From: Octopus vulgaris
Lineage: Eukaryota
NCBI GenBank assembly: GCA_951406725.2
Contig: OX597816.1
Location: forward strand, 117,056,001-117,120,000
DNA: 64,000 nt
Direction of reading: 5' to 3'
The translations under genes were made by a program, and so were the position numbers. The notes beneath the pieces are model-generated. The model had not been told where the DNA came from. It was given only the letters and a program-made list of their open reading frames with translations, and made no database searches. Shown here piece after piece: positions 5,226-50,822 of this stretch; within the stretch, counting starts at the first letter, position 1; every line of letters starts with the position of its first letter.

Positions 5226-6334
5226 TTATGAAGTTTTTGTTGAGTCATCCTTCACTTTGTTGACATTTTGAAGCAAGAAGGTAAAAAAGAAATTAAAGCC
5301 TTTTCTGTTAAGAACCAAATTATTGTTTAAGTTCTTCCAATATGACAATAAATATATTATTTGATGGATCTTTCACAAATCAAACTAACTTTTTTTGAAT
5401 TTTTCTTATACATTTTAAACATTTTAAAATGAAATTATAGTCATACCTATAATAAATGAATGACAACAACCAAAATCTTCTCGTCTTTTTGGCACTGTCA
5501 GCAGAATGTTTAGTAAAACTTTTCAGAGAAAGAACTTCAGAAATGTCTCTAATATATGGATGACATTTTCAGATAATTTATCAACACTACAAAGGAGTCA
5601 AAAATTAAATAGCATCTTTATACTTGCGCTATGAAAAAGAAATGCTAATTATAAATTAGATTAAAATCAATTACAGTATTATTTCTAATACAGAAGTCAC
5701 AAAACTGAAATAAATACAAAGAGTAACATATAATCTTTTGAGTACAGAAATGTGTATGAGTGTTTGGAGGTTAGGAAGTACATCGAATAAAGAATGTACA
5801 TATACATGTACAGTTGCTGCTGTTGTTGTTGTTTTTTGGTCAAAACTCAACTCTCATTGAACAGACCTGTGGTCAAGAGTTCTAGTTATGACTATCCTGT
5901 CTTATATTAGTGATTCCATTATAAGATGTCCTTAACTTTTCAAGATGATAGGGTGTGATTTGAAGTGATGTGAGTGTTATTTCTAGCAATCAATGTGACA
6001 CAGCTTCGATTTTAATCCCTTTTATATATTATATATACATGTTTTGGGGGTGGCACATGTGTGTATGCATGTGTGTGTGTATTGATGGATTAATAAGAGG
6101 TGGATAGGTAATACTTATGACCCTTTTCAGTGCTCTGTGACTGGTGAGAGGAAGGGAGGAAGATTTTCTCTGCTCTAAGACCTGACATGAATACTTACAG
6201 CAGAGAAAATTCCCTAAAACAACATAAAGGCTACGTTGTGGCATTATACCAAATAATGATTTAAATCTACCATCCAAGGCATTATGCTTAACTATGTTTT
6301 CATAAAGGAAACCAATATTTTTCTCAGTATTTAC

Positions 6335-9474: not shown

Positions 9475-10387
9475 AATTAATTAATAAGGGTGAGAGAATT
9501 AGATACTAATTTAATAGCATATCTATTCAACACCAAGTGGCCCAGTGCCTCGAGAAACCTGGATTATTATAATATTTTATAATATATTATAATATTTTAT
9601 ACAAAAATAAATATAAGAGAATGGTCACTATGTGGCTCATTCTAGCACTAGAAAATCCAAAAGGTTTCAACCACAAAAATGCATGTTTCCTATGAAAGTC
9701 AGTACGATTGTTAGCTCACACGAGCAGGGCAAATAAAAAATAACAAAAATACAGATTATTTTGGGACAATTTATAGGAAACATGTATTTTTGTGGTTGAA
9801 ACCTTTTGGATTTTCTAGTGCTAGAATGAGCCACATAGTGACCATTCTCTTATATTTATTTTTGTATAAAATATTATAATATATTATAAAATATTATAAT
9901 AATCCAGGTTTCTTGAGGCACTGGGCCACTTGGTGTTGAATAGATATGCTATTAAATTAGTATCTAATTCTCTCACCCTTATTAATTAATTATAATTATG
10001 CTACATTTATTTCTAAATGTAGTATTTGTTTCCGTGAAAGTTTGGCGCGCTGTTGGTAAGGGCATTTGAATTATAACGTCGGATGTAATCAATTGAACCA
10101 CACGTGTATTTATCGTTATGGTAAAATCTGGCGTGTGATTGAGTGGATTTCATCCAGATAGTTTTGGCTGAGGAGCTACAGGTGGGTTTTTTGTAAGTAA
10201 AATTACATTTAATTCATTAATAGCGAAACAATTGTCCCAAAATGATCTGTATTTTTGTTATTTTTTATTTGCCCTGTTCGTGTGAGCTAACAATCGTACT
10301 GACTTTCATAGGAAACATGTATTTTTGTGGTTGAAACCTTTTGGATTTTCTAGTGCTAGAATGAGCCACATAGTGACCATTCTCTTA

Positions 10388-33982: not shown

Positions 33983-34002
33983 GACCCTTATCATGAAGAA
34001 CA

Positions 34003-34044
34003 TTTTAGTACCGGTTTCAGTTTTTGCGACTTTTTCAACTTGGA
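34003..34044 (-). ncRNA. U3:A8 variant minimal hammerhead
   Basis: Minus: AG-TTGAAAA-AGTC GCAAA AACT-GAAAC-CG-GTA-CT; palindromic ACCGGT in place of stem III. Confidence 0.65.
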
Positions 34045-34873
34045 GTAAAGCATGAAAAACAATTAAATTGTGGAAAAATTAAATGAAATTTTTTCTAAAC
34101 ATATTTCCATAGTTTTCAAATGTATGAGACATTTTCCTATTCTTCCATCTGTCTCTGACTCTTTTTTTACTCTTATGGGGGCTTGGTAGCAGGTAATAGC
34201 AGTCCTAATATATGATATGAGGTTTTTTTCCCCTCTATAAATTCAGGGACTATGCAACCTGTAGTCAGCGCATTAGTAAAGACTCATATTTTATCAGAAA
34301 ATATAAACTCCTTTTGAATGCGTCCACCACAAATGTCACTATTACAAGGGTCTTAGAATAATACCCACGCAAATATTAAAAACGACATATTCAGAACAGT
34401 CACTACCCATGAATTTATTCGAAACAATTCCAATCACTGCTATTACAACCACAACGGGTCACTTTTGGGTCATTTGACCATTTAAGAGGATTCCACCAAC
34501 AACTTACTGTCATACCACTCACGCATTTTTATTATCCCTTTTCTTCTTTTCCTACTCCCTCTTCTTCTTCTTCTTCTTCACCTTCTTCTTCTTCCTCCTC
34601 CTCCCCCTCTTCTTCTTCTGCTTCTTCACTGCTGTCACCTTCTTTCCCAACTACTACTGCTGCTTAAACAATCAAAACCAAGAACTCATATCAAATGTTA
34701 GGACTGCTACTACCTGCCACCTGCTAACAAGAACTCACGTGTGTAAAAAAGAGAGACATATACAGACAGAAAAAAAGGAAAATGTCCCTTGCATTTGAAA
34801 ACTATGCAAATGTTTAAAAAAGACATTTCATATAATTTTTCCACAATTTAATTGTTTTTCATGCTTTACTCTA

Positions 34874-34904
34874 AGTTGAAAAAATCGCAAAGACTGAAAC
34901 TGGT
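34874..34904 (+). ncRNA. U3:A8 variant hammerhead, homology ending at the cleavage triplet
   Basis: AG-TTGAAAA-AATC GCAAA GACT-GAAAC-TG-GT, then unrelated sequence. Confidence 0.55.
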
Positions 34905-35131
34905 GAGATTGAGTTTTTTTAGTTGACCCCCAGTAGTCAATGCCTGTTATGCCGTCTGTCTTTCTTGTTATTAACCTCTGGAGTCCTTCCACTTTCATAA
35001 TGCTTTGTTTGTACAAGAACACCGTTGGATTGAAGAGGACAAATGACGAAGACAAAAAGATTCGTCGATCCCGATCACGTCTGCTGTTCTCTAAGAAGTG
35101 AAAGTTGAGTAGATGCATCTTTTATGCAAAA

Positions 35132-35579
35132 CAAGGCCAGTCTTAACAGCATCAAAAGCCCTACCCTGGGCAAAATAATATAGTGGGGCCTTTCAAGCAC
35201 AATCTACATGTATATCATAGTATACATACATTAGTATTGGACTCCTAGACCCGTGAGAGTCACAAGCAACTCTCAAGTGTATTGATGCATGGATTGGTTT
35301 TCTCAGCCATTAGAAGTAGCAGTAACAAATGAGAATGGCTGTGTTTATGAATATTAATATACATGTGTTTGCGTGTATATATATACATATGTGTGCAAAC
35401 ACACGTACACACAGCGCTGTCTTCTGTCATGGGGACACTAGGCAGCTTCCAGGGGTCTCACAAATCCAGGGGCCCAATTTTGAACTATATACGCAGTGGT
35501 TTGTTGTAAATAACTAAATACTTTAGGGCCCAGTGCATTGATTTGCCCAGGGACCTGTAATGTTGCTAAGACGGCCCTG
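35132..35579. mobile_element. Non-autonomous DNA transposon (hAT-like MITE)
   Basis: Imperfect ~55-bp TIRs: CAAGGCCAGTCTTAACAGCAT..CCCTGGGCAAAA and the reverse complement CAGGGCCGTCTTAGCAACAT..CCCTGGGCAAAT; no clear TSD. Confidence 0.65.
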
Positions 35580-35744
35580 CGCAGACACATACACATAAAT
35601 ATATGTATATACATGCACATACACACACACATGTATGTGTATGTAGTATGTATATGTTTGTATATGTATAGAATTTTATGTGCATGCATGCATACATACA
35701 TACATACATACATACATACATACATACATACATACATACATACA

Positions 35745-35773
<29 letters not shown>

Positions 35774-35775
<2 letters not shown>

Positions 35776-36295
35776 GTGATGTCTGTCCAAGACGAAACTG
35801 AAATTTTAAACAAATGTACCTAGTCGCCGCCGCAATAAAAATGCGGTTACAATGCTACATGTGGAAAGGTGACCTTGACCTTCAATCTCATTAGAGCTAC
35901 ATCATTCAATGTTAGTTAATCATCGTTCTATACGTACTGTAATGAATGCATGTTTAGTGAACTTGATGATTAAGGGCGTTGAACAACGAAAGACTTGAAA
36001 CATGTTTTTTGTGAAATTCCGTTTCGAAATGCAACACGCTTTTTAGTGAAGATTGTTTGAGATGTATGCAATGTTACAGGTGATACAAATGTTTCTAAAT
36101 CGGAAATGCCATCCACTGAAGATGATTCAAAATCTGGAAAACCTACCACGACAACGAACGACGATCTCGGTACAGAAATGTTTGCCATGATTTTTAAAAT
36201 TCGTCGCCGGACTGTCCATGAGGTTTCTGCAAAAGTAAGCGTCTGTAAAGGTTTTGCCACTTAATTGCAAAGGAAAATTTAAGGTGCAACAACAA
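35774..36295 (+). mobile_element. Mariner 5' fossil (TIR-like end plus HTH region)
   Basis: STEDDSKSGKPTT resembles the mariner ED..RSGRP linker; followed by RRRTVHEVSAKV helix-turn-helix-like segment. Confidence 0.6.
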
Positions 36296-36799
36296 TGGGT
36301 GGAGCTTATTTTAAAGAAATCCGTCTTGTTGAGACTACAAATAAAGCAATTAATTTTGTTGTTCTTTTTATAAGTTTTGTTTCATCTGAACAGGTCTCAT
36401 GTGTGTATGTTTGTGTGTGCGCGCGTGTGTACGTGCACGCATCTGTGTGTATTGATGGTTATTCCTTTATACATAAATGAAAGATTAAGTCACATTGACC
36501 TTTGGTGTGGCCTTGTGGAACAACCTTAAAGTTCAAGGGGCACATTACAGAAGTAGCTCGTCATTGCTTTGCTCCGAATTTTAATCCATCCAACAGGATT
36601 AATTGAATTCAGTCCATTCAAGTCGCAGGTCCCACACAGTTTCCATCAAACAAATTTCACTCTCAAGATATTGGTCAGCCCTGAAGCTATAGAAAAAGTC
36701 ATCTACCAAGGGTACACACAGTTATATCAAACCCTGAAACCTGTTGTTGTGAAGCAAACTTCTTACCAACACAGCCATGTAGATTATCAAATCATTACA

Positions 36800-37500
36800 A
36801 CTAGTCAGTGTCTTACAACTGTGGTAGTTGCAACCAAGAGTTAGTACACCACTTTACTGTTCAGAGGAAATGATAATTTCCCACCACATATTTTCTATAC
36901 AAAAGACAGAAAGTGTCAGTTGATATCAAATGTAGTTTATGCAAAACCAAAGACATTAACTACATTGTTACTGGCTGTAAAAGAATGTCCTCTAGATATC
37001 ATCTTCCTTACAGCATGATGTGATTAGATGAATACACCAAAACCACTAGATCAAAGAAATTCCAACCATGTTTCGTGGTTCACTACCTCAACAACTCCTT
37101 TATAGGATCCATATATAGTTGGGCTCTTAGAATAAAAATAGCAACCAAATTAAACCATGACCAAACTGATATTGGTATTTGGGACCACAAAATGAAAGCA
37201 TGCTCTGGTGTAGAAGTCAGCTGGTCACATGAGTAATAGGAATATTGCAATGGTCAAGTGTAGTAGAGGAATCTGCAAATCTAGAACACAAAATATACTA
37301 TCAGTTTTAGATTCATTATTATTAGAGCAACAGGACATGTATCAAACTGTCTTGATCAAATTATAGTAGAACTACAGATGATTACCCTCTCTGATACAAT
37401 GAGAAACTGCAAGGCCTTCTTAAAATTTAAAGGGTAATTGTTGTGTAAATGGTTTTTTTATATATAGTATTTCTTTACCATCTTGCCACTGAGCGGGTGA
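36800..37500 (+). mobile_element. Dong/R4-like RLE retrotransposon 3' fossil
   Basis: IKCSLCKTKDINYIVTGCKRMSSRYHLP (CCHC knuckle), TDIGIWD...VEVS and IIIRATG (RLE motifs). Confidence 0.7.
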
Positions 37501-38333
37501 CTAATCATAATAAACTCTAAAACAACAATCAGGAAGAGAAAATATACAAGCATAGATTTTACACTTTCATATAAATAAATATATAGATAAATAAAATTTA
37601 ATATTATTTTGTTAAAATTGAAATATTCCATTGAAAGTTAAAACAAATATTCCAATATAGATTTAGCTTTCAAAAGATGAATTTAACTTTTAAAGGCAAA
37701 TTTACAAATCTTAAACCTTTACAGCAATTGTCATTTCCTGAAATTGTAGGCTTTCGCATATATTTATTATTATAAAATTGTTATTATATTCAGCATTAGG
37801 ATTTAAAAACAAAATCTATCAATTTTGAATTCTGAAATAGATGAATGCAACTCCATAATTTATATTCCCTGAGAGTTTTCATTACATGATCTACCTACAA
37901 ATGTGTATCTATCTATATCACTTTACACAGTCAATCTCTGCTTCTCTTACACATAAAAATGCATTTTCTCTCCTTCTCCATCAATCTCTTTTGCACTCTC
38001 TCCAAATGTGTGTACATAGAAAGTGCATGTGTGTGTATATGCATGTATCAAACAATCTATTTTTCATTCATGCACACATGCACAAACATAAAATAATAAA
38101 CTCAATTTACATATATTTATATGTTAGCATGTGTGTACATGATACGTTAATACATTATATTAACATTATTATACATGTGTATATCATATTATACATTTGT
38201 ATATTATATACACAGGTACATATATAAATAGAGAGATATATTTACATACACATGTATTTATATATATGCATATTCATGTAATAAATATGCATATATATAA
38301 ATATGCAATTTGTATATTTCTCTCAACTCACTC

Positions 38334-38402
<69 letters not shown>

Positions 38403-38407
38403 TGGTT

Positions 38408-38443
<36 letters not shown>

Positions 38444-38508
38444 AAGAGAGCAAAGATTATGCATATGAGACTACATATATATATATAGGCATGTACATAA
38501 GCACATCC

Positions 38509-38553
<45 letters not shown>

Positions 38554-38648
38554 TAAATGAAAGAATGGAGTCGAACGAAGTAAGGCCATTATATATATAT
38601 ATATGAATAAATGAAAGAATGGAGTCGAACGAAGATGTTAACAAAATT

Positions 38649-38742
38649 CCTTTACTCTCGACACATGTTTCGAAGACAGCATATTTTCATTCCGAAGGAA
38701 TAAAGGGTGCATTATGCAATCTTCTCATCAGGAAAGAAAAGG
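38649..38742 (-). ncRNA. Type-I minimal hammerhead ribozyme, intact core
   Basis: Minus: CCTTT-T-CTTTC-CTGATGA-GAAGA..GCATA...TATGC..TCTTC-GAAAC-ATGT-GTC-GAGAG-T-AAAGG; palindromic ACATGT. Confidence 0.88.
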
Positions 38743-39391
38743 AGCCTCTCTTAACAACAAGACAAACAAAAATTTCGATGATTGCCTACATGGTAACCAA
38801 AGCGATAATGAGTGTTTTTTTTTTAAATCCGTTATAAGCATTGACGTCAAAAATAGATAGTAGGAGGAAGTAAAAATAGGTAGGGGACAGTATGTTTGCT
38901 GTATGTATGGAAATGTGTGGGTGTGTGCTAGTGTTAATGAGTGCGTGTGTTTGTGTGTGTATATGTGTGTGTGTGTATATAACTGCATTTGTGTCTGTGT
39001 GTGTGAGGGAGAGACAGACGTCAAAGATAGGTAGTAGTAAGGGAAGATATAAAGGAGTAATAGGTAGGGAAGGGGAAGTGTACGTTGATTGAAAGAATGT
39101 ACGGAGGCTTAGGAAAGAATTTCCCTATAGCAGTGGTGTGGACGTGAAGCTAATTGTTAAAACCACAGTGACTATCGTTATCATTTATATGAGTAGAAAG
39201 TGTGTTTCTGCCAATGTTTACATTTGTACGATTTTTCTATGAGTGTGTTTACTAGGGGAACCTTAGCGAAAAGAATATGGAAGAGCTCAGAGTTACAAAT
39301 GTTACAAAAAACACATTCATTATCGCTTTGGTTACCATGTAGGCAATCATCGAAATTTTTGTTTGTCTTGTTGTTGAGAGAGGCTCCTTTT

Positions 39392-39472
39392 CTTTCCCGA
39401 TGAGAAGATTGCATAATGCACCCTTTATTCCTTCGGAATGAAATATGCTGTCTTCGAAACATGTGTCGAGAG
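39392..39472 (+). ncRNA. Hammerhead copy with U4->C substitution
   Basis: CTTTC-CCGATGA-GAAGA...TCTTC-GAAAC-ATGT-GTC-GAGAG. Confidence 0.75.
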
Positions 39473-39829
39473 TAAAGGAATTTTGTTAACATCTTCGTTC
39501 GACTCCATTCTTTCATTTATTCATATACAACACACAAATTTCTACACATGAACCCGGAGTTTCTACCCTTGACAGGTCGCTTCAACCGTGTTTTCTGACG
39601 TGAATTTGCTACCCAGGTTTCGGTTAAACGAATTTTCCATGCTGACAATAAACATAGGATAATTCATTCACCTACTTAAATATATATATATATATATGAA
39701 GGACTCTGTTGTCATGAACGACAAATGAGGGTTTAGTAAAATAAAGCGGTAATCATGCTGTATGCCTGCTGGTGCCTTGCAAACCTTTTGGTAAATGGAA
39801 CAAGTTGAGGACTCAGTTTGCTTGAGTGC

Positions 39830-40559
39830 TTGTGGATCATTCACTATGTGTTTTCTTTTTTTGGGACTGAATAGCAAATTGGTGATGAGAAATGGGTATA
39901 AAGCACCAAAGACAGTGGGTAGGGAAAGGAGAAACACCAGCACCCCATACTAAAGAAGGTCTTCACCCATATAAGGTGTTGTTATCTGTCCACTTTGAAA
40001 TTTTAAACCCAAACCAAACGATGAAAAAGGATATCTACTGCGAGCAGCTTGAGTGGCTTAAATCAGTGCTAGAAGAAAAACAACTATTTTTGGTTTGAAG
40101 ACGAAAGGTGTTCTTCCATCAGGATAATGCTCGGCCACATACAGTGAGGATGACATTCCAAAGGCTGGAGCAGTTTGAATGGGAAACAATGCCCCACCCA
40201 CCATATTCACCAGACATTGCCCCATCTGATTATCATTTATTCTGCAGTCTTCAAAATCATTTGGACAGAAAAAATATGAATTCTGTAGATGATGTCAGAA
40301 CAGTACTGGAGCAGTATTTTTCATCACGGACAAGAGGATTTTGGAAGAAGGGCCTTGCAAGTCTACCAGATAGATTGATTGATTGATTGATTCCAGTTCC
40401 AGCCTATGAGCTGTGGCCATGCTGGGGCACCGCCATAGATGGAAGATCACTGTAGAAAAAGAAGGAGAGTGTATTTTAGATTAAAAAAGAACTTTGTTTA
40501 TCTTGGTTTTGGAAAATGAAAAAGTATAAAAAAGCACATTTATTTATGGGATGACCCAA
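39830..40559 (+). mobile_element. Mariner DD34D transposon 3' fragment with right TIR
   Basis: HQDNARPH...HPPYSPDIAPSDY (34 residues counted between Asp); ends TTATGGGATGACCCAA|TA; interrupted by a 59-bp insert. Confidence 0.92.
40376..40434 (-). mobile_element. 59-bp retroposed 3' end with (AATC)n tail and ATAGAT target-site duplication
   Basis: ATAGAT at 40370-75 and 40435-40; removing the insert and one TSD restores the transposase frame LPDRWKITVEKEGE. Confidence 0.85.
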
Positions 40560-40689
40560 TATATACATATATGTATATGTATGTATATAAACATACACAC
40601 ACACATACTTACATACACATACATACACACATATATACATATATATGTGTGATTATGTGTATGTATGCATATATTATTATTATATTTGG

Positions 40690-41870
40690 TAGATTGAGGC
40701 AACTTTCTACTGCATCATCTACTACATCTCTGTGTTGCTGGGGTGTGTGCAGCATTGAGTGTTCTATTCTGCTGTTGGGGGTGTGCAAACTCTTCCCAAT
40801 ACTGTATTGTGTTAACTTTTTTCTTGGGGTGTGGTGTTGTCTTTTGTGTGCTTGTATTGTGTGTGTTGAGTGTGTAATGTTTTGGTTTTCTAGATTGCTG
40901 GTGGGAGTTTATTTCATTGGGTAGGTGCTGTATAGAAGGTGTCTTGTATTTGTGGGTTGTTTTGTTTAGGTCGTATTATTGAATTAATAATGTCTTCTGT
41001 AGAATGTGGGCTGTTCTTAGCAGGGCTATTTTTTGGACAGTGTAGTGTTGAAGATCCAAGTATAGCTTCTACATTTTTGTTCATGTGATTTTTTTATCAT
41101 GCCCAATGCTCCAATTATTATTGGTATTGTTTTTCCCTTCATGCCCCACATTTTGAATATTTAAATATTGAGGTCTTTGTACATCGACAATTACTCCACT
41201 TCTTTTTTGAAAATATTTTGATCAGAAGGGACTGCAATGTCTATCAGTAAGCAAGTGTTTTTTTCCCCAATCCTTGACTATTATGTCTGGGTGATTAGCT
41301 TTTACTTCTTTGCCTGTTTGAACCAGTATATCCCAGATAATTGTGGCCTGATCGTTGTCTTGTACCTTTCTTGGTACATGCTTATAGCACCTGTGTCAGT
41401 TTTGATGTTGTAACATTGGCATATTGTCCAGTAGATATAACTGCTTACTTTGTCATGTCTTTATACATATTCAGAATTGGCAAAGACTGGGCAGCCCGTG
41501 ATGATGTGGTCAGCTGTTTCGTTGTTGTGGTTGCACATTCTGCATTTGGTGTTGAGGCCTGTTTTCATTATTTTATTTTTTGCTTTTATAATTGTTTGTA
41601 GTCAGGCATTGATCTTGTGCAGAAAGAATCAGTCCTTCCATTTCGACTTTTAGTCCAGAGCTTTTGAGCCATTGTTAACTTTTACTTAGGCTCACTTCCT
41701 CTCTATCAAATCTTAAAGTCATTTTTCTCTCCATTTCTTCTACAGTATCTTTTGTAATTCAGTTTCATGTTGTTTTTTTTTTGTCTCTCTGACCATGTCT
41801 GCTATGTTGTCGTCTGAGGTCAGTGTGTCACTGTAGTTTGCTTCTGTTTTTTTTTTCTATTTCCTTTTCG
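40690..41870 (-). mobile_element. Dong/R4-like non-LTR retrotransposon 3' part (CCHC plus restriction-like endonuclease)
   Basis: Minus: KCRMCNHNNETADHIITGC..RHDKV; PDIIVKD..CLLIDIAVPSDQN; PIIIGALG; ends in an AAT-type tail. Confidence 0.9.
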
Positions 41871-42189
41871 TGAAACCAAATGATTGTTGTAAATGAGTGC
41901 CATTCATGCAAATCATGTCTGGCCCTCAGAAAATATTACTCTTCTTAGAAAAAGTGTTGGTGACAGGAAGAGCATCTGACCATGGAAAATATGCCTCAAT
42001 AAATTACGTCCATGCCATGCTGGAGCACTATCTTGAAGGATTTTAGTCAAACTTATTTTTTAAGCCTAGTACTTATTCTGTTGGTCTGTTTTGCTGAGCC
42101 ACTAAGTTACAGAGATATAAATATACCAACACCACTTGTCAAGCAGTAATGGGGGACACAAACACAGACACACACTCATAGATATATAC

Positions 42190-42228
<39 letters not shown>

Positions 42229-42231
<3 letters not shown>

Positions 42232-42610
42232 TTTCTTTTACTCTTTTACTTGTTTCAGTCATTTGACTGTGGCTATGCTGGAGTACCACCTTTAGTCAAG
42301 CAAATCGACCCCAGGACTTATTCTTTGTAAGCCTAGTACTTATTCTATCAGTCTCTTTTGCCGAACCACTAAGTTACAGGGGCATAAACACACCAGCATC
42401 GGTTGTTGGGGGCACAAACGCAGACACACAAACACACACATATATATACATATACATATATACGATGGGCTTCTTTCAGTTTCCGTCTACCAAATCCACT
42501 CACCCAAGGTGCCATGCAGTGGGACTGAACCTGGAACCATGTGGTTGCTAAGCAAGCTACTTACCACACAGCCACTCCTGCACCTATAGCTACTTACCAC
42601 ACAGCCACTC

Positions 42611-42612
<2 letters not shown>
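42229..42612 (-). mobile_element. SINE family A, young copy with duplicated 5' end
   Basis: Near-consensus; AGCTACTTACCACACAGCCACTCCTG occurs twice; a partial second tail at 42015-42180. Confidence 0.9.
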
Positions 42613-42667
<55 letters not shown>

Positions 42668-42669
<2 letters not shown>

Positions 42670-43200
42670 CAGCTATAGATATTTGTTTGCACATAAACCT
42701 AAATTTTTTTGTGTAAATTCATTCATATGTCTGTGTGTATATGTTTGTGTGTGTGTGTGTGTGTATTTGCATGTGTATATGTACATGTGAATTTGTGTAC
42801 ACAAAAAACACACAAAAACATGCTTTCACAATGTATATAGCTATACATATAGCTACCAAGTTAAATCTATAGAACTGATAATTGCTAGTTAGTTACTTGG
42901 GTGGATGGGTGGGTGGGTGGATGAATGGATGGATGGATGGATAGATGGATGAATAGATAGACAGATAGACAGATAGTTTGATAGCTGTGTATGTGTATTT
43001 ATTTAAATATTTGCATGGATGGTCATAAATGCATATGTTTTTTATTGTGAAAGCATGTTTTTGTGCGTTTTTTGTGTACACAAATTCACATGTACATATA
43101 CACATGCAAATACACACACACAAACATATACACACAGACATATGAATGAATTTACACAAAAAAATTTAGGTTTATGTGCAAACAAATATCTATAGCTGAA
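42668..43200. repeat. Near-perfect ~160-bp inverted duplication
   Basis: 42668-42832 is the reverse complement of 43044-43200 apart from TG-tract length and isolated substitution; 211-bp spacer. Confidence 0.92.
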
Positions 43201-43207
43201 CATGTTT

Positions 43208-43296
<89 letters not shown>

Positions 43297-43740
43297 ATAT
43301 AATCTACCCAAATACTTATATTCTTTTCTTTTCTTATTTTATCTGTTTCTTTGGCCAAGCTACTAAGTTACAGGGATGTAAACACACCAGCACTGGTTGT
43401 CAAGCAGCGGTGGAGGAGAAACACATACACAGACAAACACACACATACACACAAACACACAAACACACACACACACACACACACATGTGTGTACATACAT
43501 ACAATGGGCAACATTCAGTTTCCATCTAACAAATCCCCTCACAGGGGTTTGCTTGGCCCGAGGTTATAATAGAAAACACTTTCCCAGGGTGCCATGCAGT
43601 GCGACTGAACCCAGGATCATGTTGTTGGGAAGGTAACTTCTTGCCTCACAGCTACACCTGTGCCCATTATTCTGTAGTAAACTTGTATAACTATGTGTTC
43701 TTCTGTGTCTCTGTCCCTCTTCCTGTGACATCTCTTCTGT

Positions 43741-43789
<49 letters not shown>

Positions 43790-44202
43790 CACACACACAC
43801 ACTCACCTATGCTTTCAATATTTCTGAATTTACTATCGAAAATTCAACGTTAGTTCAGTAAATATGTATATCATGTGCATTTCTATATGTAACTCTATAT
43901 ATATTACGTGTGTTTGCGTGGGTGTGTGTATGTGTGTGTGTGAGTCCACCAAAGTTAATTTATTGTAAATTACCATATGTATTTTTTCCACATATGAATA
44001 CTCACACACACAAACACACCCAAACACTCACCCACCCACACACACACACACACATATATATATATGCATGTATGTGTGTGTCTGTGTATATGTGTATATA
44101 TATATATATAATACACACATTTACATTAATTATTTAAACTATGTACACTTGTATTTATATTCATGTATACTTTTTATAATTATACACATACATGTAAATA
44201 TT

Positions 44203-44248
<46 letters not shown>

Positions 44249-44314
44249 CATACACACACACACACACAATACATATTTAAAACTATATTTGTGAGTTTGT
44301 ATATTTGCTTGTGC

Positions 44315-44361
<47 letters not shown>

Positions 44362-44433
44362 AGTGTGTGTTATATTTTTCATAATTTATGTCTATCTTTT
44401 TTTTTGCTACTTGTTTTTGTTTTCTTTTCCCAG

Positions 44434-44958
44434 TTCCATTACCATATGTAGAACTAAACCGAATTCTGCTTACTGTAATTGTCTGTATGTCTGAGTGTTA
44501 GGATGATGCCAGGCCAGCCAGCGCAGTTCCATGGATTGTCAGATTTTGCGGATGCAAAATAAAATTTGTATTAAAAATCAATGAAATTTCTTCAATATAG
44601 GTAAAAATATAATGCATAAAATAAATATTTATAGGAAATCTGAATATCTTGTCTAAGATAGACATAGGTGGTTATAACAAAGAACTTTCCTCTTCTTATA
44701 GAACAAATATCAGAACATTTGAATATTCAATAGGGATACTGAAGAAAACTAACTATATTTTGAATGCATCATTAATGAATAGTTGGCTTCTTTCATTCTT
44801 TCTTTCTTTCTTTTAGTTTTCTTCTTCATTAATTCTTTTGTTATTTCATGTTTTTTTTTCTTTTACCATTTTATTTTGTTTCCTTTATTTAGCTTTCTTT
44901 CTATTTCTTTGTGTTTTTCTTTTGTAGGAGAGGAGTTTACCAGCCTTTCTTTCATTAA
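44434..44958 (+). other. Two candidate non-coding exons (44434-44600, 44928-44958)
   Basis: Long polypyrimidine tracts ending CAG (44433) and TAG (44927); donors AG|GTAAAA and AA|GTAAGG; no through-going ORF. Confidence 0.3.
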
Positions 44959-45097
44959 GTAAGGAATATTGGGATACATATATTTCTGAATATTATTAAA
45001 AGAATTGAATTTATACAGTAGAAGGTTTATTATTATATTTCAAGGATTAGACAAATATTCGCACAAAAGTATTGTGTTTTGATATTTCACTCCATCT

Positions 45098-45128
<31 letters not shown>

Positions 45129-45313
45129 TGCTCTCACTTTCAATTTCTTTCTCTAACTCCCTTACATGCTTCAATTCTTCATGGAGTATATGCAAGTTCA
45201 TTAATATATATCATATATAAATATGTACACACACATGCATCCACCCACAAAGATATGTATATGTATGTACATATATACATATGCATGAATTTATGTACAT
45301 TTATAATATATAT

Positions 45314-45388
<75 letters not shown>

Positions 45389-45491
45389 AAAATATACATA
45401 TATATATATATATGTGTGTGTGTAGATATACATATATATATGCACATGCATACATATAAATTTTTGTTCGCACACACATACACTTGCACAC

Positions 45492-45546
<55 letters not shown>

Positions 45547-45917
45547 GATATATATATTTATGTGTGTGTGTGTATGTGGAGATATATATGTATATATTAC
45601 GTGCATGTGTGTATGTGTATATGTATATATGTATATGCCCCAACATGATCACAAATCCCGGCTCATACAAATAACATCATACATGTGTGTGTGTGTGTGC
45701 GAGTTTGTGTGTGTGTGTGCGTGTGTGTGTATATACATACAAATAAACATATATAAACATTTATAAATATGTGTGTATGCACAAATATATAGATATTTAT
45801 ACATACACACACATAACAGCATATATAAAGTATGTATAATTCATAAAATATATTTATTTAATGTGTGTGTTTGTGTGTGTGTTTGTGTGTGTGTTTATGT
45901 GTGTGTGTGTGCATGTG

Positions 45918-45963
<46 letters not shown>

Positions 45964-46540
45964 TATACATATATATATGTATATATATGTATGCATATTT
46001 TATGTATATGTATGTATGTGTGTGCATAACTGTATCAGTGTGCATATGTGTATGTGAAGGTATGTATGTGTGTGTATATATATATAAACATATATATATA
46101 TGATTGCATGTAACATGTATAGTTATATGCATGTATTTATGTGTGAGTAAATAAATGTATGTAGCATATATATTCATATGTATGCATTTATGCCTATTTG
46201 TGTGTGTCTGTGCATGTGTGTGTGTCTGAGCATGTGTGTGTATATGTATATTTATATATATGAAATATATATAATATATATGTATAATATATATATATAC
46301 ATACATATATTTATATACATGCATATATATAAACATATATATATCTTATATACACATATTATACATACATACATACATATATATATATACATACATATAT
46401 AAAGACATAGATATATATGATATATATGATATATATTATATATATATACATAAATATATATATATATAATATATATGTATATATATATATACATATATAT
46501 GTATATTATATAACATATATGTGATATATTATTATATATG

Positions 46541-46607
<67 letters not shown>

Positions 46608-46907
46608 CATACATACATATTATATATAAGGATTGTTCAATAAATAAGATAATAAAATGTGATTACAATTCTAAAAAAGACAAAGAAAATTTTTCTCAAT
46701 ATAGATGGAAATAAAATCGTAATAATTTACTGCATGTCATAATATATTGCTTTCTGTATAGATATAGACACAGAGTCACATATGCACACACACACACAAT
46801 ATATATATATATATATATGCATACATATATGTGCATATATATATATTCATATATATATATATATATATACACATATATATATATTATATATATATATATA
46901 TATATAA

Positions 46908-46976
<69 letters not shown>

Positions 46977-46991
46977 AATGAAAACACTCAC

Positions 46992-47110
46992 CATAAGGTG
47001 CAACATGCTACCAAAGCATATGGGCATATAGACCTCTCCTACACTCCTATCTCTGACATGGTTGGATAATCCTCTTAACTCTAGATAAACTAGTGTGCTG
47101 AGTCTATATG
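46992..47110 (-). other. Candidate 119-nt exon
   Basis: Minus: pyrimidine tract..TACACAG| exon |GTGAGT; one frame open (YRLSTLVYLELRG...LHLM), protein not recognised. Confidence 0.3.
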
Positions 47111-47354
47111 CTGTGTATAAGTAAAAAGGAATATAGAAAACAAGTTCAGTATTATTGCTTTACATATTGTATTTGTGTTTCATAAGACACAGAGCATCAA
47201 TTATATGAGCATGAAATTCAGTAGTGTGAGCTATCGCTGTTAGCCACATTTAATAAATTTAAAAGAAGTTCTAATAATATCAATAATCTTAAAACCAGAA
47301 TCAAAAGCAGTTATAATATTGACAACAATTAAGATATACACAAGAAAAGGACAT

Positions 47355-48207
47355 ATTGCTTTCTACTATAGGTATAAAACTTGAGTGTTTAGGAGATGGG
47401 GCAGGTAGATAACATTGATTCCACTGCTCAACTAGTACTTTTTTTATCAATCCTGGAAAGTCAAACTCAGCAGAAATTAAACTTAGAACATAGACAGAAG
47501 AAATACCACTTAGCATTTTGTCCAGTTTGCTAACAATTCTGCCAGCAGAATGCCTGAAAAATAGGAAAAGAAACAACAACAACAACGACGACGATGCCCT
47601 GTTGCAGTAGAAGTAGTGGGAGAGTATCATAGCCATGTGTTTAGAGGGATTCTTTGGGATTTGAATAATTTACCTCTGGAAACATGGGTATTTCGTTCAA
47701 CACCCTTAAACAACTCTTATTCAAGAGCCATTTGAGCGTGATGGGCTACTCAACCTGAAGAAAATTCTAACTGGGCCCCACCTGCAAGATCATGCACTGT
47801 TTATCTTGATATGAGATCACCATGTCGAGCACATATGGTTGTGATGCATGTGCCTAGTGTACCCTTATCAGACAGGTAATCATGATGAGTATACTGGATT
47901 TCATATATTTTACTCCAGTGTCACTTTGATGGCATGCACTGCTCTCTCACTCAATAATAATAATAATGATATTAATCCCTTCTACTAAAGGTACAAGGCC
48001 TGAAAATTTGGGGGAAGGAGACTAGTCGATTACATCAACCCCAGTGTTTCCCTGGTACCTTAATTTATCAAACCCAAAAAGATGGAAGACAAAGTCAACC
48101 TCAGCAGAATTTGAACTCAGAACATCAAGGTAAACAAAATGCCATGAAGCATTTCACCTAACATGCTAACGATTCTGCCAGCTTACTGCCTTGATAAAAA
48201 CAACAGC

Positions 48208-48280
<73 letters not shown>

Positions 48281-49016
48281 GTTTCAAATTTTGTGTTTTA
48301 TTGGTACAGTAGTGGTTGATTACATCAATCTTGGTACTTGATTAGTACTTATTTTATCGACCCTGAAAGGATGAAAGGTGAAGTTGTTCTCAACAGAGTC
48401 TGAACACAAAGTATGAAAATGAATGATATGCCAGTAAGAATTTTCTCCAGTGTGCTAACAATTCTTCCAGCTCACTGCCTTAAGAAAAGGTAATAATGAT
48501 GGTAATCCTTTCTATTTTAGACACAAGACCTGAAATTTTGTGGGAGGGGACTAGTCATTTACATTTATCCCACTACTTGAATAAGATTTATTTTATCAAC
48601 CTCCCAAAGGATGAAAGGCAAAGTCAACCCTGATGGAATATGAACTCAATACATAGACAGACAAAATGCAGTTAACCATTTTGCCTAGCATGCTAATGAT
48701 TCTACCAGCTTACTACCTTATGTAAAGTCAGAAAAAATGCGACTAAGCATTTTATCCAATGTGTTAACAATTCTACCAGCTAGCCACCTTAATAATAATA
48801 ATAGTTCTTTCTATTAAAGGCACAAAGCCTGCAATTTTGGGGAGGAAACTAATCGATTACATCAACCCCAGTGTTTTATTGGTACATAATTTATCAACCC
48901 TGAAAGGATGAAAGGCAAAATCAACTTCAGCAAAATTTGAAATCAGAACATAAAGATGGACAAAATGCTGCTAAGCATTTGCCTGGTGTGCTAACAACGT
49001 TGCCAGTTCACTGCCT

Positions 49017-49018
<2 letters not shown>
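47355..49018 (-). mobile_element. Cluster of 5-6 co-oriented SINE family C copies separated by (AAT)n
   Basis: Units at about 47355-47555, 47975-48193, 48280-48480, 48505-48720, 48735-48790 (partial), 48805-49018. Confidence 0.85.
47600..47965 (+). mobile_element. Non-LTR retroelement 3' end with (AAT)n tail, family uncertain
   Basis: Complex sequence ending GCACTGCTCTCTCACTC-AATAATAAT inside an AAC/AAT repeat context. Confidence 0.5.
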
Positions 49019-49078
<60 letters not shown>

Positions 49079-49079
49079 G

Positions 49080-50516
49080 CAATACATAGGCTAAACCAAA
49101 AACAGTCTACGTCAAAGGATGGCTCTACATAGGTCTCAGATCAAAATTTGGGAATACAGAAAAATAACATTCAGCGAACACATTGTCATTTGCGCCACTA
49201 ACAAACAACCCAGCTTCAGAATTTTTCCCTTCTATAAACTCACAGACAATACAACCTGTAGTCAGCACATTAGTAAAGAGTCATACTTTATCACAAAATA
49301 TAAACCCCTTTTGAATGCGTCCACCACAAATGTCACTATTACAAGGGCCTCAGAATAATACCCATGCAAATACTTAAAATGATATATTCAGAAGAGTCAC
49401 TACTCATGAATTTATTCTGAACAATTCCAATCACTACTATTACAACCACAACGGTTCACTTTTAGGTCACTTGACCATTTAAGAGGATTCCACCAACATC
49501 CTACAACTGTCATACCACTTCCGCATTCTTCTTCTTCTTCTTCTTATTCTTATTCTTCTTATTATTATTATTATTATTTTCCTTCTTCTTCACTGCCACC
49601 TCCTTTCCCAACTACTACTACTTAAACAATCAAAACCAAGAATTCATATCAAATATTAGGACTTATAATAACTGCTACCTACCACCAAGAACTCATGTGA
49701 ATAAAAAAGAGAGACAGAGACATATGTTTTTAGAGACTTTTCATAGCTTTGGGTTGTCTTTTGCTCTTTATGATGGCATGCGTTTGGAGGATTAAATTCA
49801 TTCTGTGGTCCCTTTTTAGAAGGGGAATGTTCTGGAGAATGGTGTCAAAGGCTTCATTATTAACAGGGTTGTGTGTGGAGATGTATGGTAGAACTTTTGG
49901 TTGTAAATCCTTCTTTAATTTGGGATGCCTGAGTTCATGGATGTTGAGTTGTAGGGCACGTTGAAAGCATATGTCAATTAGTGATGGTGTTTAGTTCCTG
50001 GTGCTTGTATTAGAAACTACAGTACCCATTAATTTATTCGGAACAATTCCAATCACTGCTATTACAACCACAACGGGTCACTTTTAAGGTACTTGAACAT
50101 TTAAGAGGATTCCACCAACAACCTACAACTGTCATACCACTCCTGCATTTTTATTATTCTTTCTTTTTTCTTTTTTTTTTCTTCTTTTTCTTCTTCCACT
50201 TCTTCTGCTTCTTCTTCACTGCTGCCACCTCATTTCCCAACTACTACTGCTGTTGAAACAATCAAAACCAAGAATTCATATCAAATATTAGGACTGCTGC
50301 TACCTGCCACCGACTACCAAGCCCTCACAAGAGTAAAAAAGAGAGACAGAGACAGACAGAAAAAAGGAAAATGCCCCTTGCATTTGAAAACTATGGAAAT
50401 ATTTTGAAAAGACATTTCATTTAATTTTTTCCACAATTTAATTGTTTTTCATGCTTTACTCTAAGTTGAAAAAGTCGCAAAGACTGAATCTGGTACTAAA
50501 ATGTTCTTCATGATAA
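49080..50516 (+). mobile_element. Penelope-like element: GIY-YIG endonuclease remnant, two 3' repeats and an inverted RT-linker fragment
   Basis: QYIG*TKNSLRQRMALHRSQI...SEHI..C...KESYFITKYKPLLNA; minus 49740-49990 LPYISTHNP...SKRQPKAMK; 49400-49720 repeated at 50030-50350. Confidence 0.9.
50464..50500 (+). ncRNA. U3:A8 variant hammerhead (A15.1->T damaged copy)
   Basis: AG-TTGAAAA-AGTC GCAAA GACT-GAATC-TG-GTA-CT. Confidence 0.6.
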
Positions 50517-50822
50517 AATTATTTTAGCATTTTATATATATATATATATATACAATGTACTGATGTGTGATGAAAATTTTCAGCGGCTGTAAATATATGT
50601 CAAAGTAAATTTTGAAGAATTGGAATATTCCGGCCATACATGATTAACTTGTTGATAGCTTTCCTGCCTTATAATTTAAAATCTGAGGATTTTACCTTTT
50701 AGTTTTAGTTTTTACTTGTTCGTTTTCGGTTTTTTAACCTTCCATGTTTCCTATATGCTGCTTTCTCAACTTTTCGTCTTCTTTCTCTCATTCAACTTTC
50801 AGTTCGTTATGATATAGGGTTT

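Follow-up and report, generated by a model that had tools for sequence, protein, structure and literature searches.

The window, a stretch of 64,000 nt of Octopus vulgaris DNA, contains three hammerhead motifs, all within decayed Penelope-like element (PLE) copies that are truncated at the 5' end; the element has a Zn-finger linker of the Neptune/Nematis type (Table 1). The assignment to Penelope in the preliminary description was supported, as the remnants in the window match ORF2 of an intact sister family at 68–83%, and the GIY-YIG remnant reported there was found at 49083–49319 (YIG*TKNSLRQRMALH...C...KESYFI).

Table 1. Features of the Penelope-like insertions in the window
Feature	Position	Strand	Evidence or state
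Inverted 3'-terminal repeat (pLTR) fragment, insertion 1	33988..34220	-	blastn to 50276-50516, 80% over 241 nt
Hammerhead copy 1	34009..34038	-	U3:A8 core and ACCGGT palindrome preserved, stem II with one mismatch; cut predicted between 34009 and 34008
C-terminal GIY-YIG remnant	34224..34334	+	tblastn, sister-family ORF2 residues 747-783, 68%
3' UTR with (TTC)n tract, insertion 1	34335..34875	+	self-blast to 49222-49525 and 50218-50494
Hammerhead copy 2	34876..34905	+	stem II mismatch, GTG at triplet, homology end 34904
GIY-YIG endonuclease remnant	49077..49331	+	ORF2 residues 699-783, 69%, one stop
3' UTR fragment, insertion 2	49332..49726	+	self-blast
Inverted ORF2 piece between RT and linker	49733..50006	-	tblastn and blastn, residues 543-632, 83%
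3' UTR/pLTR fragment	50020..50465	+	holds 5' strand of stem I, possible distal helix (TTTTTCATG)
Hammerhead copy 3	50466..50495	+	U3:A8, stem II intact, A15.1 -> T, core damaged
Sequence after predicted cut (position 1.1 onward)	50496..50537	+	leads into (TA)n tract

The heptamer TTGAAAA was present in 3/3 copies, as described earlier, with U3 at 34038 (-), 34876 (+), and 50466 (+). The further statement that all three carry AGUC/GACU, GAAAC, and GUA was not borne out; each copy deviates from this motif, which is the majority form of the family in the window (family A, 60 copies). Stem II of copy 1 is AGTC/AACT, copy 2 reads AATC/GACT and GTG, its stem I having no 3' strand, and copy 3 reads GAATC. 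The complete type I core (U4, G5, A6, A9, G12, A13, A14, A15.1, U16.1, and H17 with a Watson-Crick 3–8 pair) is found in the family majority and, among the window copies, only in copy 1 at 34.0 kb. Function of the three copies was unsupported: in two of them the core is damaged or a stem is absent. Against Rfam, copy 3 had no hammerhead match at E values up to 10, and the best 150 of the 444 window matches listed included none. Homology of the 34.9-kb copy does end after GT, as noted earlier, but this end was rejected as a cleavage mark because none of 30 family-A and 16 family-B loci stop at the cleavage site. Beyond it, the sequence has a match at one other locus (L014), pointing to a later insertion or to a rearrangement.

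Judged from genomic counts, and in line with the preliminary description, U3:A8 is the consensus of family A and not a product of drift. Among 69 family-A copies, 65 were T3:A8, three C3:A8, and one A3:A8; G8 did not occur. With C3:G8 in 0/69, the refuting condition set in the preliminary description, a canonical family consensus, did not hold. A genome search with the pattern YTGANRA-N(10-18)-GAAACCGGTA returned 5,987 matches, above the chance level given by the reversed pattern (39), and these comprised approximately 5,785 U3:A8, 92 C:A, 94 T:G, and 16 C:G motifs (nine of the last in the control). An unbiased count in family E gave T3:A8 in 14/17. The proposal that positions 3 and 8 form a compensatory pair was likewise upheld: in a scan of 98 related loci that was unbiased as to this pair, 22/22 hammerhead motifs were Watson-Crick at 3–8, and 10 shuffles yielded no motif. 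That UUGAAAA arose by AT drift from the canonical core, or by chance, would suit an AT-rich genome (window G+C 34%), but we regard it as exceedingly improbable and as refuted by the counts above: C3:G8 occurs only at background level, a young family whose ORFs are 96.6–99.9% identical is likewise U3:A8, and position 7 differs between families whereas positions 3 and 8 are constant.

The swap itself is known and not new here, contrary to what had been implied; U3:A8 occurs in Schistosoma Penelope elements, with approximately 1,300 published hits in S. mansoni PLEs (PMC4209133). In natural hammerheads C3-G8 covaries to U3-A8, and the variant is described as active in vitro (Perreault et al. 2011, PMC3088659); the sections of that article on these hammerheads give no link to PLEs. 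In the O. vulgaris genome, nearly 6,000 motifs of the present class escape searches restricted to CUGANGA.

Stems I and II covary over six families; in family A pair 10.1–11.1 is A-U, in family B it is G-C. Cognate pairing of stem I reached 30 of 36 positions over the six families, the best of 720 permutations (mean 18.7). Five to six of the six stem I pairs form in families B, D, E, and F, and four of six in family A (G-C, A-U, A.A, U-A, C.A, U-A), in which the third pair is mismatched. Family A has a stem II of 4 bp and the palindromic stem III, and the computed duplex of the ACCGGU palindrome was -10.3 kcal/mol. The predicted hammerhead fold lay above the MFE by 6.2 kcal/mol in family A and 2.3 kcal/mol in family B; the dimer stems formed in the family-B cofold and did not form when two natural family-A copies were cofolded. 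In the model, a distal helix TTTTTCATG/CATGATAAAA could hold family-A stem I together. By analogy with the pairing of C3 and an inhibitory G17 (PMC3884650), A17 could be a competing partner of U3. The U3:A8 core likely cleaves after GUA when two copies pair via the palindrome. The Schistosoma PLE hammerheads (PMC4209133) share the 3–8 covariation, the type I fold in the pLTR, and a palindromic helix III requiring a dimer, and those elements likewise show opposite-strand pairs 100–700 bp apart and mostly truncated copies, whereas the octopus motifs have a short stem II (2–5 bp), no extra base after A9, and the triplet GUA.

The intact young sister family encodes ORF1 and an RT-endonuclease in the -1 frame. 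ORF1 (411 aa) is separate and overlaps ORF2 in the -1 frame with a slippery site (U UUU UUA); it had three homologues and matched no Pfam family. In ORF2 (784 aa), RVT_1 scored above the cut-off (E = 3.5e-8) and GIY-YIG just under it (E = 3.8e-4), and the linker CX2-5CXXC ahead of the GIY-YIG domain is present as CGRPNCGIC. Locus L067 has a tandem period of 4,386 nt, and no stable structure was predicted downstream of its slippery site. In the RT tree, a single fragment lacking the linker grouped at 100/99 with 14 rows that bear it. As in EN+ PLEs, we found pLTRs, partial tandems, 5' inversions (in the window), and an optional tail (13/60 family-A copies); the 3' ends of copies lie approximately 60 nt, or 95 nt with the tail, beyond the cut site in (TA)n. 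Neptune/Nematis elements share the RT, the linker, the C-terminal GIY-YIG, pLTRs, 5' inversions, a tail of 30–40 nt, and microsatellite targets (Craig et al. 2021, PMC8557442), and the (TA)n targeting only hints at Neptune rather than Nematis. Canonical EN+ PLEs are described in that paper as single-ORF elements, whereas the sister family carries an ORF1 together with a -1 slippery site; we read this layout as a variant architecture that does not exclude the family from PLEs. It may already be known, because the Fig. 1 legend of the same paper mentions a frameshifted ORF1, clade unstated, and esterases are mentioned in Neptune-like PLEs (PMC5408684).

Two other identities were considered. A non-LTR retrozyme, consisting of short non-coding tandem repeats with a hammerhead each, was rejected, since what is present are scattered, truncated copies of a 4.4-kb coding unit. 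A 3' splice site at AG|TTGAAAA, by analogy with an intron of D. virilis, showed no GT-AG joint in contigs of eight runs, which is evidence neither for nor against it.

Next, we focused on junctions at the predicted cut. The 3' end of U6 snRNA (Rfam RF00026) is fused exactly at position 1.1 in four U3:A8 sister families, namely B (L285, L294), C (L397), F (L401), and G (L415), as well as in what is probably a relative of family D (L410) and in the C3:G8 family H (L400). In family B, four foreign hammerheads are joined cut-to-cut, each ending at its own GTC (L289, L296/297, L361, L368). By hand counts, U6 or hammerhead partners made up 6/18 on-site events and 0/27 events at +2 to +7 (Fisher p = 0.002; p = 0.007 with six further on-site events). 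Six of the nine foreign-RNA partners at 1.1 in one junction set end exactly at cyclic-phosphate ends, i.e., the terminal T-run of U6 or the hammerhead GTC; for three SINE-like partners at 1.1 (L299, L301/302, L309), no end of this kind is known. Site specificity is limited to this class of partner, because plain 5' truncations are found at +2 to +7 as well as at the cut, and their enrichment at the cut is accordingly not clear (tally of 74 matches, with 30 loci and 20 regions examined in full and the remainder judged from the match list). Since sister-family copies join U6 or other ribozymes exactly at the predicted cut, the U3:A8 variant likely cuts in living cells in these families. For Schistosoma PLEs, low activity in vitro and no evidence in vivo were reported (PMC4209133), whereas the octopus junctions provide genomic evidence suggestive of cutting. 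The 100 U6 ends listed, out of 161, included no family-A junction; the site at which one would fall is CTAAAATG. Cleavage by family A is something we infer only, because its stem I is weak and no junction, to U6 or to a ribozyme, was seen.

U6 has a cyclic-phosphate end, and RtcB ligates U6 to a 5'-OH (PMC6789731). In U6/LINE-1 chimeras, too, a retroelement RNA was fused in sense to the 3' end of U6 and retrotransposed, although in L1 the junctions vary and the nuclease is not known (Moldovan et al. 2019, PMC6789731), whereas the octopus junction is fixed at the predicted ribozyme cut. We found no paper treating U6 snRNA, Penelope, chimeras, and ribozymes together. In the anole Poseidon element PAc the RT likewise initiates internally, at two sites that lie downstream of the hammerhead, and two such start sites would explain the octopus tail; PAc differs in its C3:G8 core and in an ORF that begins inside the ribozyme (Frangieh et al. 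2024, PMC11167929). In the anole experiments described there, mutating the ribozyme left insertion in vitro unimpaired, and RNA-seq gave no reads with either end at the cut.

We consider it probable that the window motifs are decayed type I hammerheads of a PLE terminal repeat whose U3:A8 family core would cut after GUA as a palindrome-paired dimer, with the cut ends ligated and the joint copied by the RT. From the observed element identity, U3:A8 state, stem covariation, 3' ends, and foreign RNAs at the cut in sister families, we infer cutting of the transcript, ligation, and copying across the joint. A read-through or tandem transcript would be cut to leave a 5'-OH at position 1.1, which would be joined, probably by an RtcB-type ligase, to an RNA with a 2',3'-cyclic phosphate, normally the 3' end of the element itself and rarely U6 or the product of another ribozyme. 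The RT-endonuclease would then prime in (TA)n, initiate 60–95 nt downstream of the cut, and copy back over the joint, giving rise to 5'-truncated, inverted, and partial-tandem copies. Family A is an older wave with a ribozyme that is probably weaker than those of its sisters. We hold only tentatively, at somewhat under an even chance, the broader model that PLEs replicate via ribozyme-cut and re-ligated (circular) RNA, in which germ-line hammerhead cutting (including U3:A8/GUA), host RtcB-type ligation, and an RT start just beyond the joint would combine, and mis-ligation to U6 or ribozyme ends would record cleavage sites.

An alternative to which we give about one chance in three would have the ribozyme cut and the RT, on reaching the cut 5' end, switch to an abundant small RNA at its 3' end, with uncut read-through RNA as the source of normal copies. 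It departs from the preferred mechanism at the joining step only and needs neither ligation nor a circle. Template switching is the alternative that still stands for U6/L1 chimeras (PMC11838501), uncut RNA was the main in vitro substrate of the anole element (PMC11167929), and the SINE-like partners agree with a jump, but the predominance of partners with cyclic-phosphate ends, the substrate of RtcB, argues for ligation. In nearly all copies a hammerhead of their own lies upstream, an arrangement compatible with both. It is also conceivable, although we think it unlikely, that the family-A hammerhead is a non-functional relic, its U3:A8 core inherited intact while stem I decayed in a master element that spread without cutting. 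Two of the six stem I pairs are mismatched and fixed in the majority of the 60 copies, the fold energy is unfavorable, and the U6 ends listed include no family-A junction; yet core, stem II, and palindrome are unaltered in the majority, and the distal helix could stabilize stem I.

The additions made here are the covariation of stems I and II over six families, the cut-site junctions in sister families, and an intact sister family with ORF1 and an RT-endonuclease. In the accounts consulted, hammerheads of PLEs cut poorly in vitro and no cut was shown in vivo (PMC4209133, PMC11167929, PMC8557442). The octopus junctions constitute base-precise, indirect evidence for germ-line cutting by weak, variant ribozymes and render the circular-template model testable, and the young intact family offers natural material for assays. 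If that model is true, mis-ligation junctions would map active cleavage sites to the base, one family at a time.

Two insertions account for the three hammerhead motifs of the window. The TTGAAAA heptamer given in the preliminary description was confirmed in every motif (3/3); the uniform AGUC/GACU stem II, GAAAC, and GUA also described were not, each copy departing from them: in copy 1, the 3' strand of stem II reads AACT; copy 2 carries AATC in stem II together with GTG and lacks the stem I strand downstream; copy 3 reads GAATC. The core is intact in copy 1 only. Because the copies agree with the family A majority at 89/91, 67/69, and 108/111 positions, respectively, their sequences identify them as ordinary decayed members of that family. 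The window also contains two long inverted repeats.

Coordinates and sequences of features in the window and in related loci (L-numbers)
Feature	Location	Strand	Description
Hammerhead copy 1	34038-34009	-	TTGAAAA
Hammerhead copy 2	34876-34905	+	TTGAAAA
Hammerhead copy 3	50466-50495	+	TTGAAAA
Insertion 1	33988-34904		inverted terminal repeat adjoining sense copy
Insertion 2	49077-50537		endonuclease remnant, 3' UTR, inverted ORF2 piece, terminal repeat into (TA)n
Inverted repeats	9616-10385; 38551-39522		near-perfect, arms 97-99%; MITE- or foldback-like
ORF1, intact family B	L067:4090-5325
RT-EN ORF2, intact family B	L067:5262-7616		slippery site at 5286
Foreign type I hammerheads	L289, L296/L297, L361, L368		CAAAUA-like loops; joined at GTC to family B 1.1
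Stem I, family B			TTACAG/CTGAAA
Stem I, family D			TTACTT/AAGTAA
Stem I, family E			GATAT/ATATT
Stem I, family F			AGAAAT/ATTTCT

A census of family A that left positions 3 and 8 free gave T:A in 65/69 copies, C:A in three, A:A in one, and G8 in none, which establishes U3:A8 as the family state and not a drifted CUGAAGA. Genome-wide, motifs ending GAAACCGGTA yielded 5,987 matches versus 39 in the control; C:G occurred in 16 (control, 9), C:A in 92, and T:G in 94, leaving approximately 5,785 T:A by subtraction. The frequency of each single change (~1.6%) is what decaying T:A copies would be expected to produce. The same genome also carries canonical C3:G8 hammerheads belonging to other families, at L048 (minus strand, 532), L069 (minus strand, 5335), and L285. 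The preliminary description implied that the U3:A8 core was new; it is already known, since it was reported in Penelope-like element (PLE) hammerheads in 2014 (~1,300 Schistosoma mansoni hits; PMC4209133) and in natural hammerheads in 2011 (PMC3088659).

U3, A8, and GAAACCGGUA are common to at least seven families with differing stems. Families A and C have A-U at pair 10.1-11.1, where B, E, and F have G-C, and cognate stem I strands of B, D, E, F, G, and H paired at 30/36 positions, the best of 720 permutations. An unbiased scan of 98 related loci of other organisms found 22 hammerhead motifs, all Watson-Crick at 3-8 (16 C:G, 4 U:A, 1 G:C, and 1 A:U); 10 shuffles yielded no motif. The A3:U8 and G3:C8 cores lie in PLE-like loci at L118:1969 and L115:117. 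U3:A8 rows occupied four separate places in the reverse transcriptase (RT) tree, which suggests a recurrent swap. Stem III is formed by the palindrome ACCGGU, without monomer closure and with a duplex energy of -10.3 kcal/mol; metazoan PLE hammerheads have been described with this same dimer design (PMC4209133). Counting against a hammerhead, family A stem I has mismatched third and fifth pairs, and the fold lies 6.2 kcal/mol above the MFE. U3 was combined with A17 in all U3:A8 families examined, a further point against it; by analogy with C3, which pairs with an inhibitory G17 (PMC3884650), U3 could pair with A17. In family F (L230-L234), the U3:A8 hammerhead has a stem II of only 2 bp and a stem I of 7 bp, and even so U6 is joined at the cut site (L401). 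A pyrimidine tract and AG resembling a 3' splice site precede U3 in families A-C (window 50457-50465; L067:3925-3935); no spliced contig across these bases was seen among the assembled contigs searched.

The terminal region of the window element gave 2,474 first-look candidates in the AT-rich, 2.8-Gb host genome. Used as a protein query, the linker-endonuclease region revealed a younger sister family (B), which has numerous open frames of ~784 aa and shows 96.6-99.9% ORF2 identity among 11 fetched copies. Its 4,386-nt unit comprises the hammerhead, a leader of ~125 nt, ORF1 (411 aa, no Pfam family, three unnamed homologues), ORF2 (RT, CGRPNCGIC linker, and GIY-YIG), and a 3' UTR with (TTC)n. 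The two ORFs overlap at T TTT TTA, with ORF2 in the -1 frame relative to ORF1, and the sequence T TTT TT(A/G) was in the -1 register in all eight other, distantly related loci with computable register; frameshifted ORF1 may already be known, judging from the Fig. 1 legend of PMC8557442. In ~10 family B copies (L333, L336, L344, L350, and L353 among them), recurrent deletion between two ACTGAAA/ACCGAAA repeats removed GAAACCGGTA. Linker-bearing elements clustered with support of 100/99 in the 29-row RT tree, which excluded four loci with short RT matches. The element is a PLE of the Neptune/Nematis type. PLE sequences in bacterial MAGs (L156-L173), several with hammerheads, are probably host DNA in bins.

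The end of the 34.9-kb copy at the GU of the cleavage triplet is uninformative because no examined copy ends at the cleavage site (0/30 in family A and 0/16 in family B). Unlike these, copies beginning at the site are informative. We collected 42 family B matches in which the base preceding position 1.1 (the first position after the predicted cut) is not A. Half (21) retained their own ribozyme upstream, with point changes, one deletion, and one rearrangement; the other 21 represented 18 events, with two U6 3' ends, four foreign hammerheads, three SINE-like sequences, one own ORF1, five own inverted sequences, and three (TA)n or flank as partners. Each foreign hammerhead ends at its own GTC cleavage triplet, and that of L361 is also U3:A8. 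In a control allowing junctions from -2 to +7 (74 matches; 30 loci and 20 regions read), plain truncation was not limited to 1.1, and no U6 or ribozyme partner occurred among 27 events at +2 to +7 (Fisher p = 0.002-0.007 versus 1.1; hand counts).

A search starting from U6, without reference to the element, returned 161 matches, of which 100 were listed and 50 fetched. Most of the U6 ends lead into a short target motif belonging to other repeats. U6 was joined base-exactly to the PLE leader at 1.1 in families B, C, F, and G (U3:A8, read from one old copy in G) and H (C3:G8), probably in a relative of D, and less exactly in one further family whose core was not seen. None of the 50 joined U6 elsewhere in the family B unit or to family A. 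Most of the U6 pseudogene ends L369-L398 run into a short T/A stretch and then the beginning of one of a few abundant repeats (AGGCGCAGGAG, AAGGCGGTGC), a pattern suggestive of a target site that they share and that belongs to another retroelement.

The simplest reading of the junctions is cutting, ligation, and reverse transcription across the joint: the ribozyme would cut after GUA, the new 5'-OH end would be ligated, and RT would start ~60 or 95 nt downstream and copy across; 25/60 family A copies end in (TA)n, and 13/60 carry the tail. The internal RT initiation described for an anole PLE (PMC11167929) would allow such copying. U6 RNA and the 5' products of ribozymes alike carry a terminal 2',3'-cyclic phosphate, which RtcB joins to 5'-OH (PMC6789731). 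Were the element's own end the usual partner, the template would be a circle, as proposed in PMC4209133. We infer ligation rather than template jumping, and a circular template, with caution because of the SINE-like partners at 1.1 and the anole in vitro result. We found no literature report of U6-Penelope junctions; supplements of the cited papers may list these families. Cutting has good support for B, C, F, and G, and what is new here are the junctions with a U3:A8/GUA core and the ribozyme-to-ribozyme joints.
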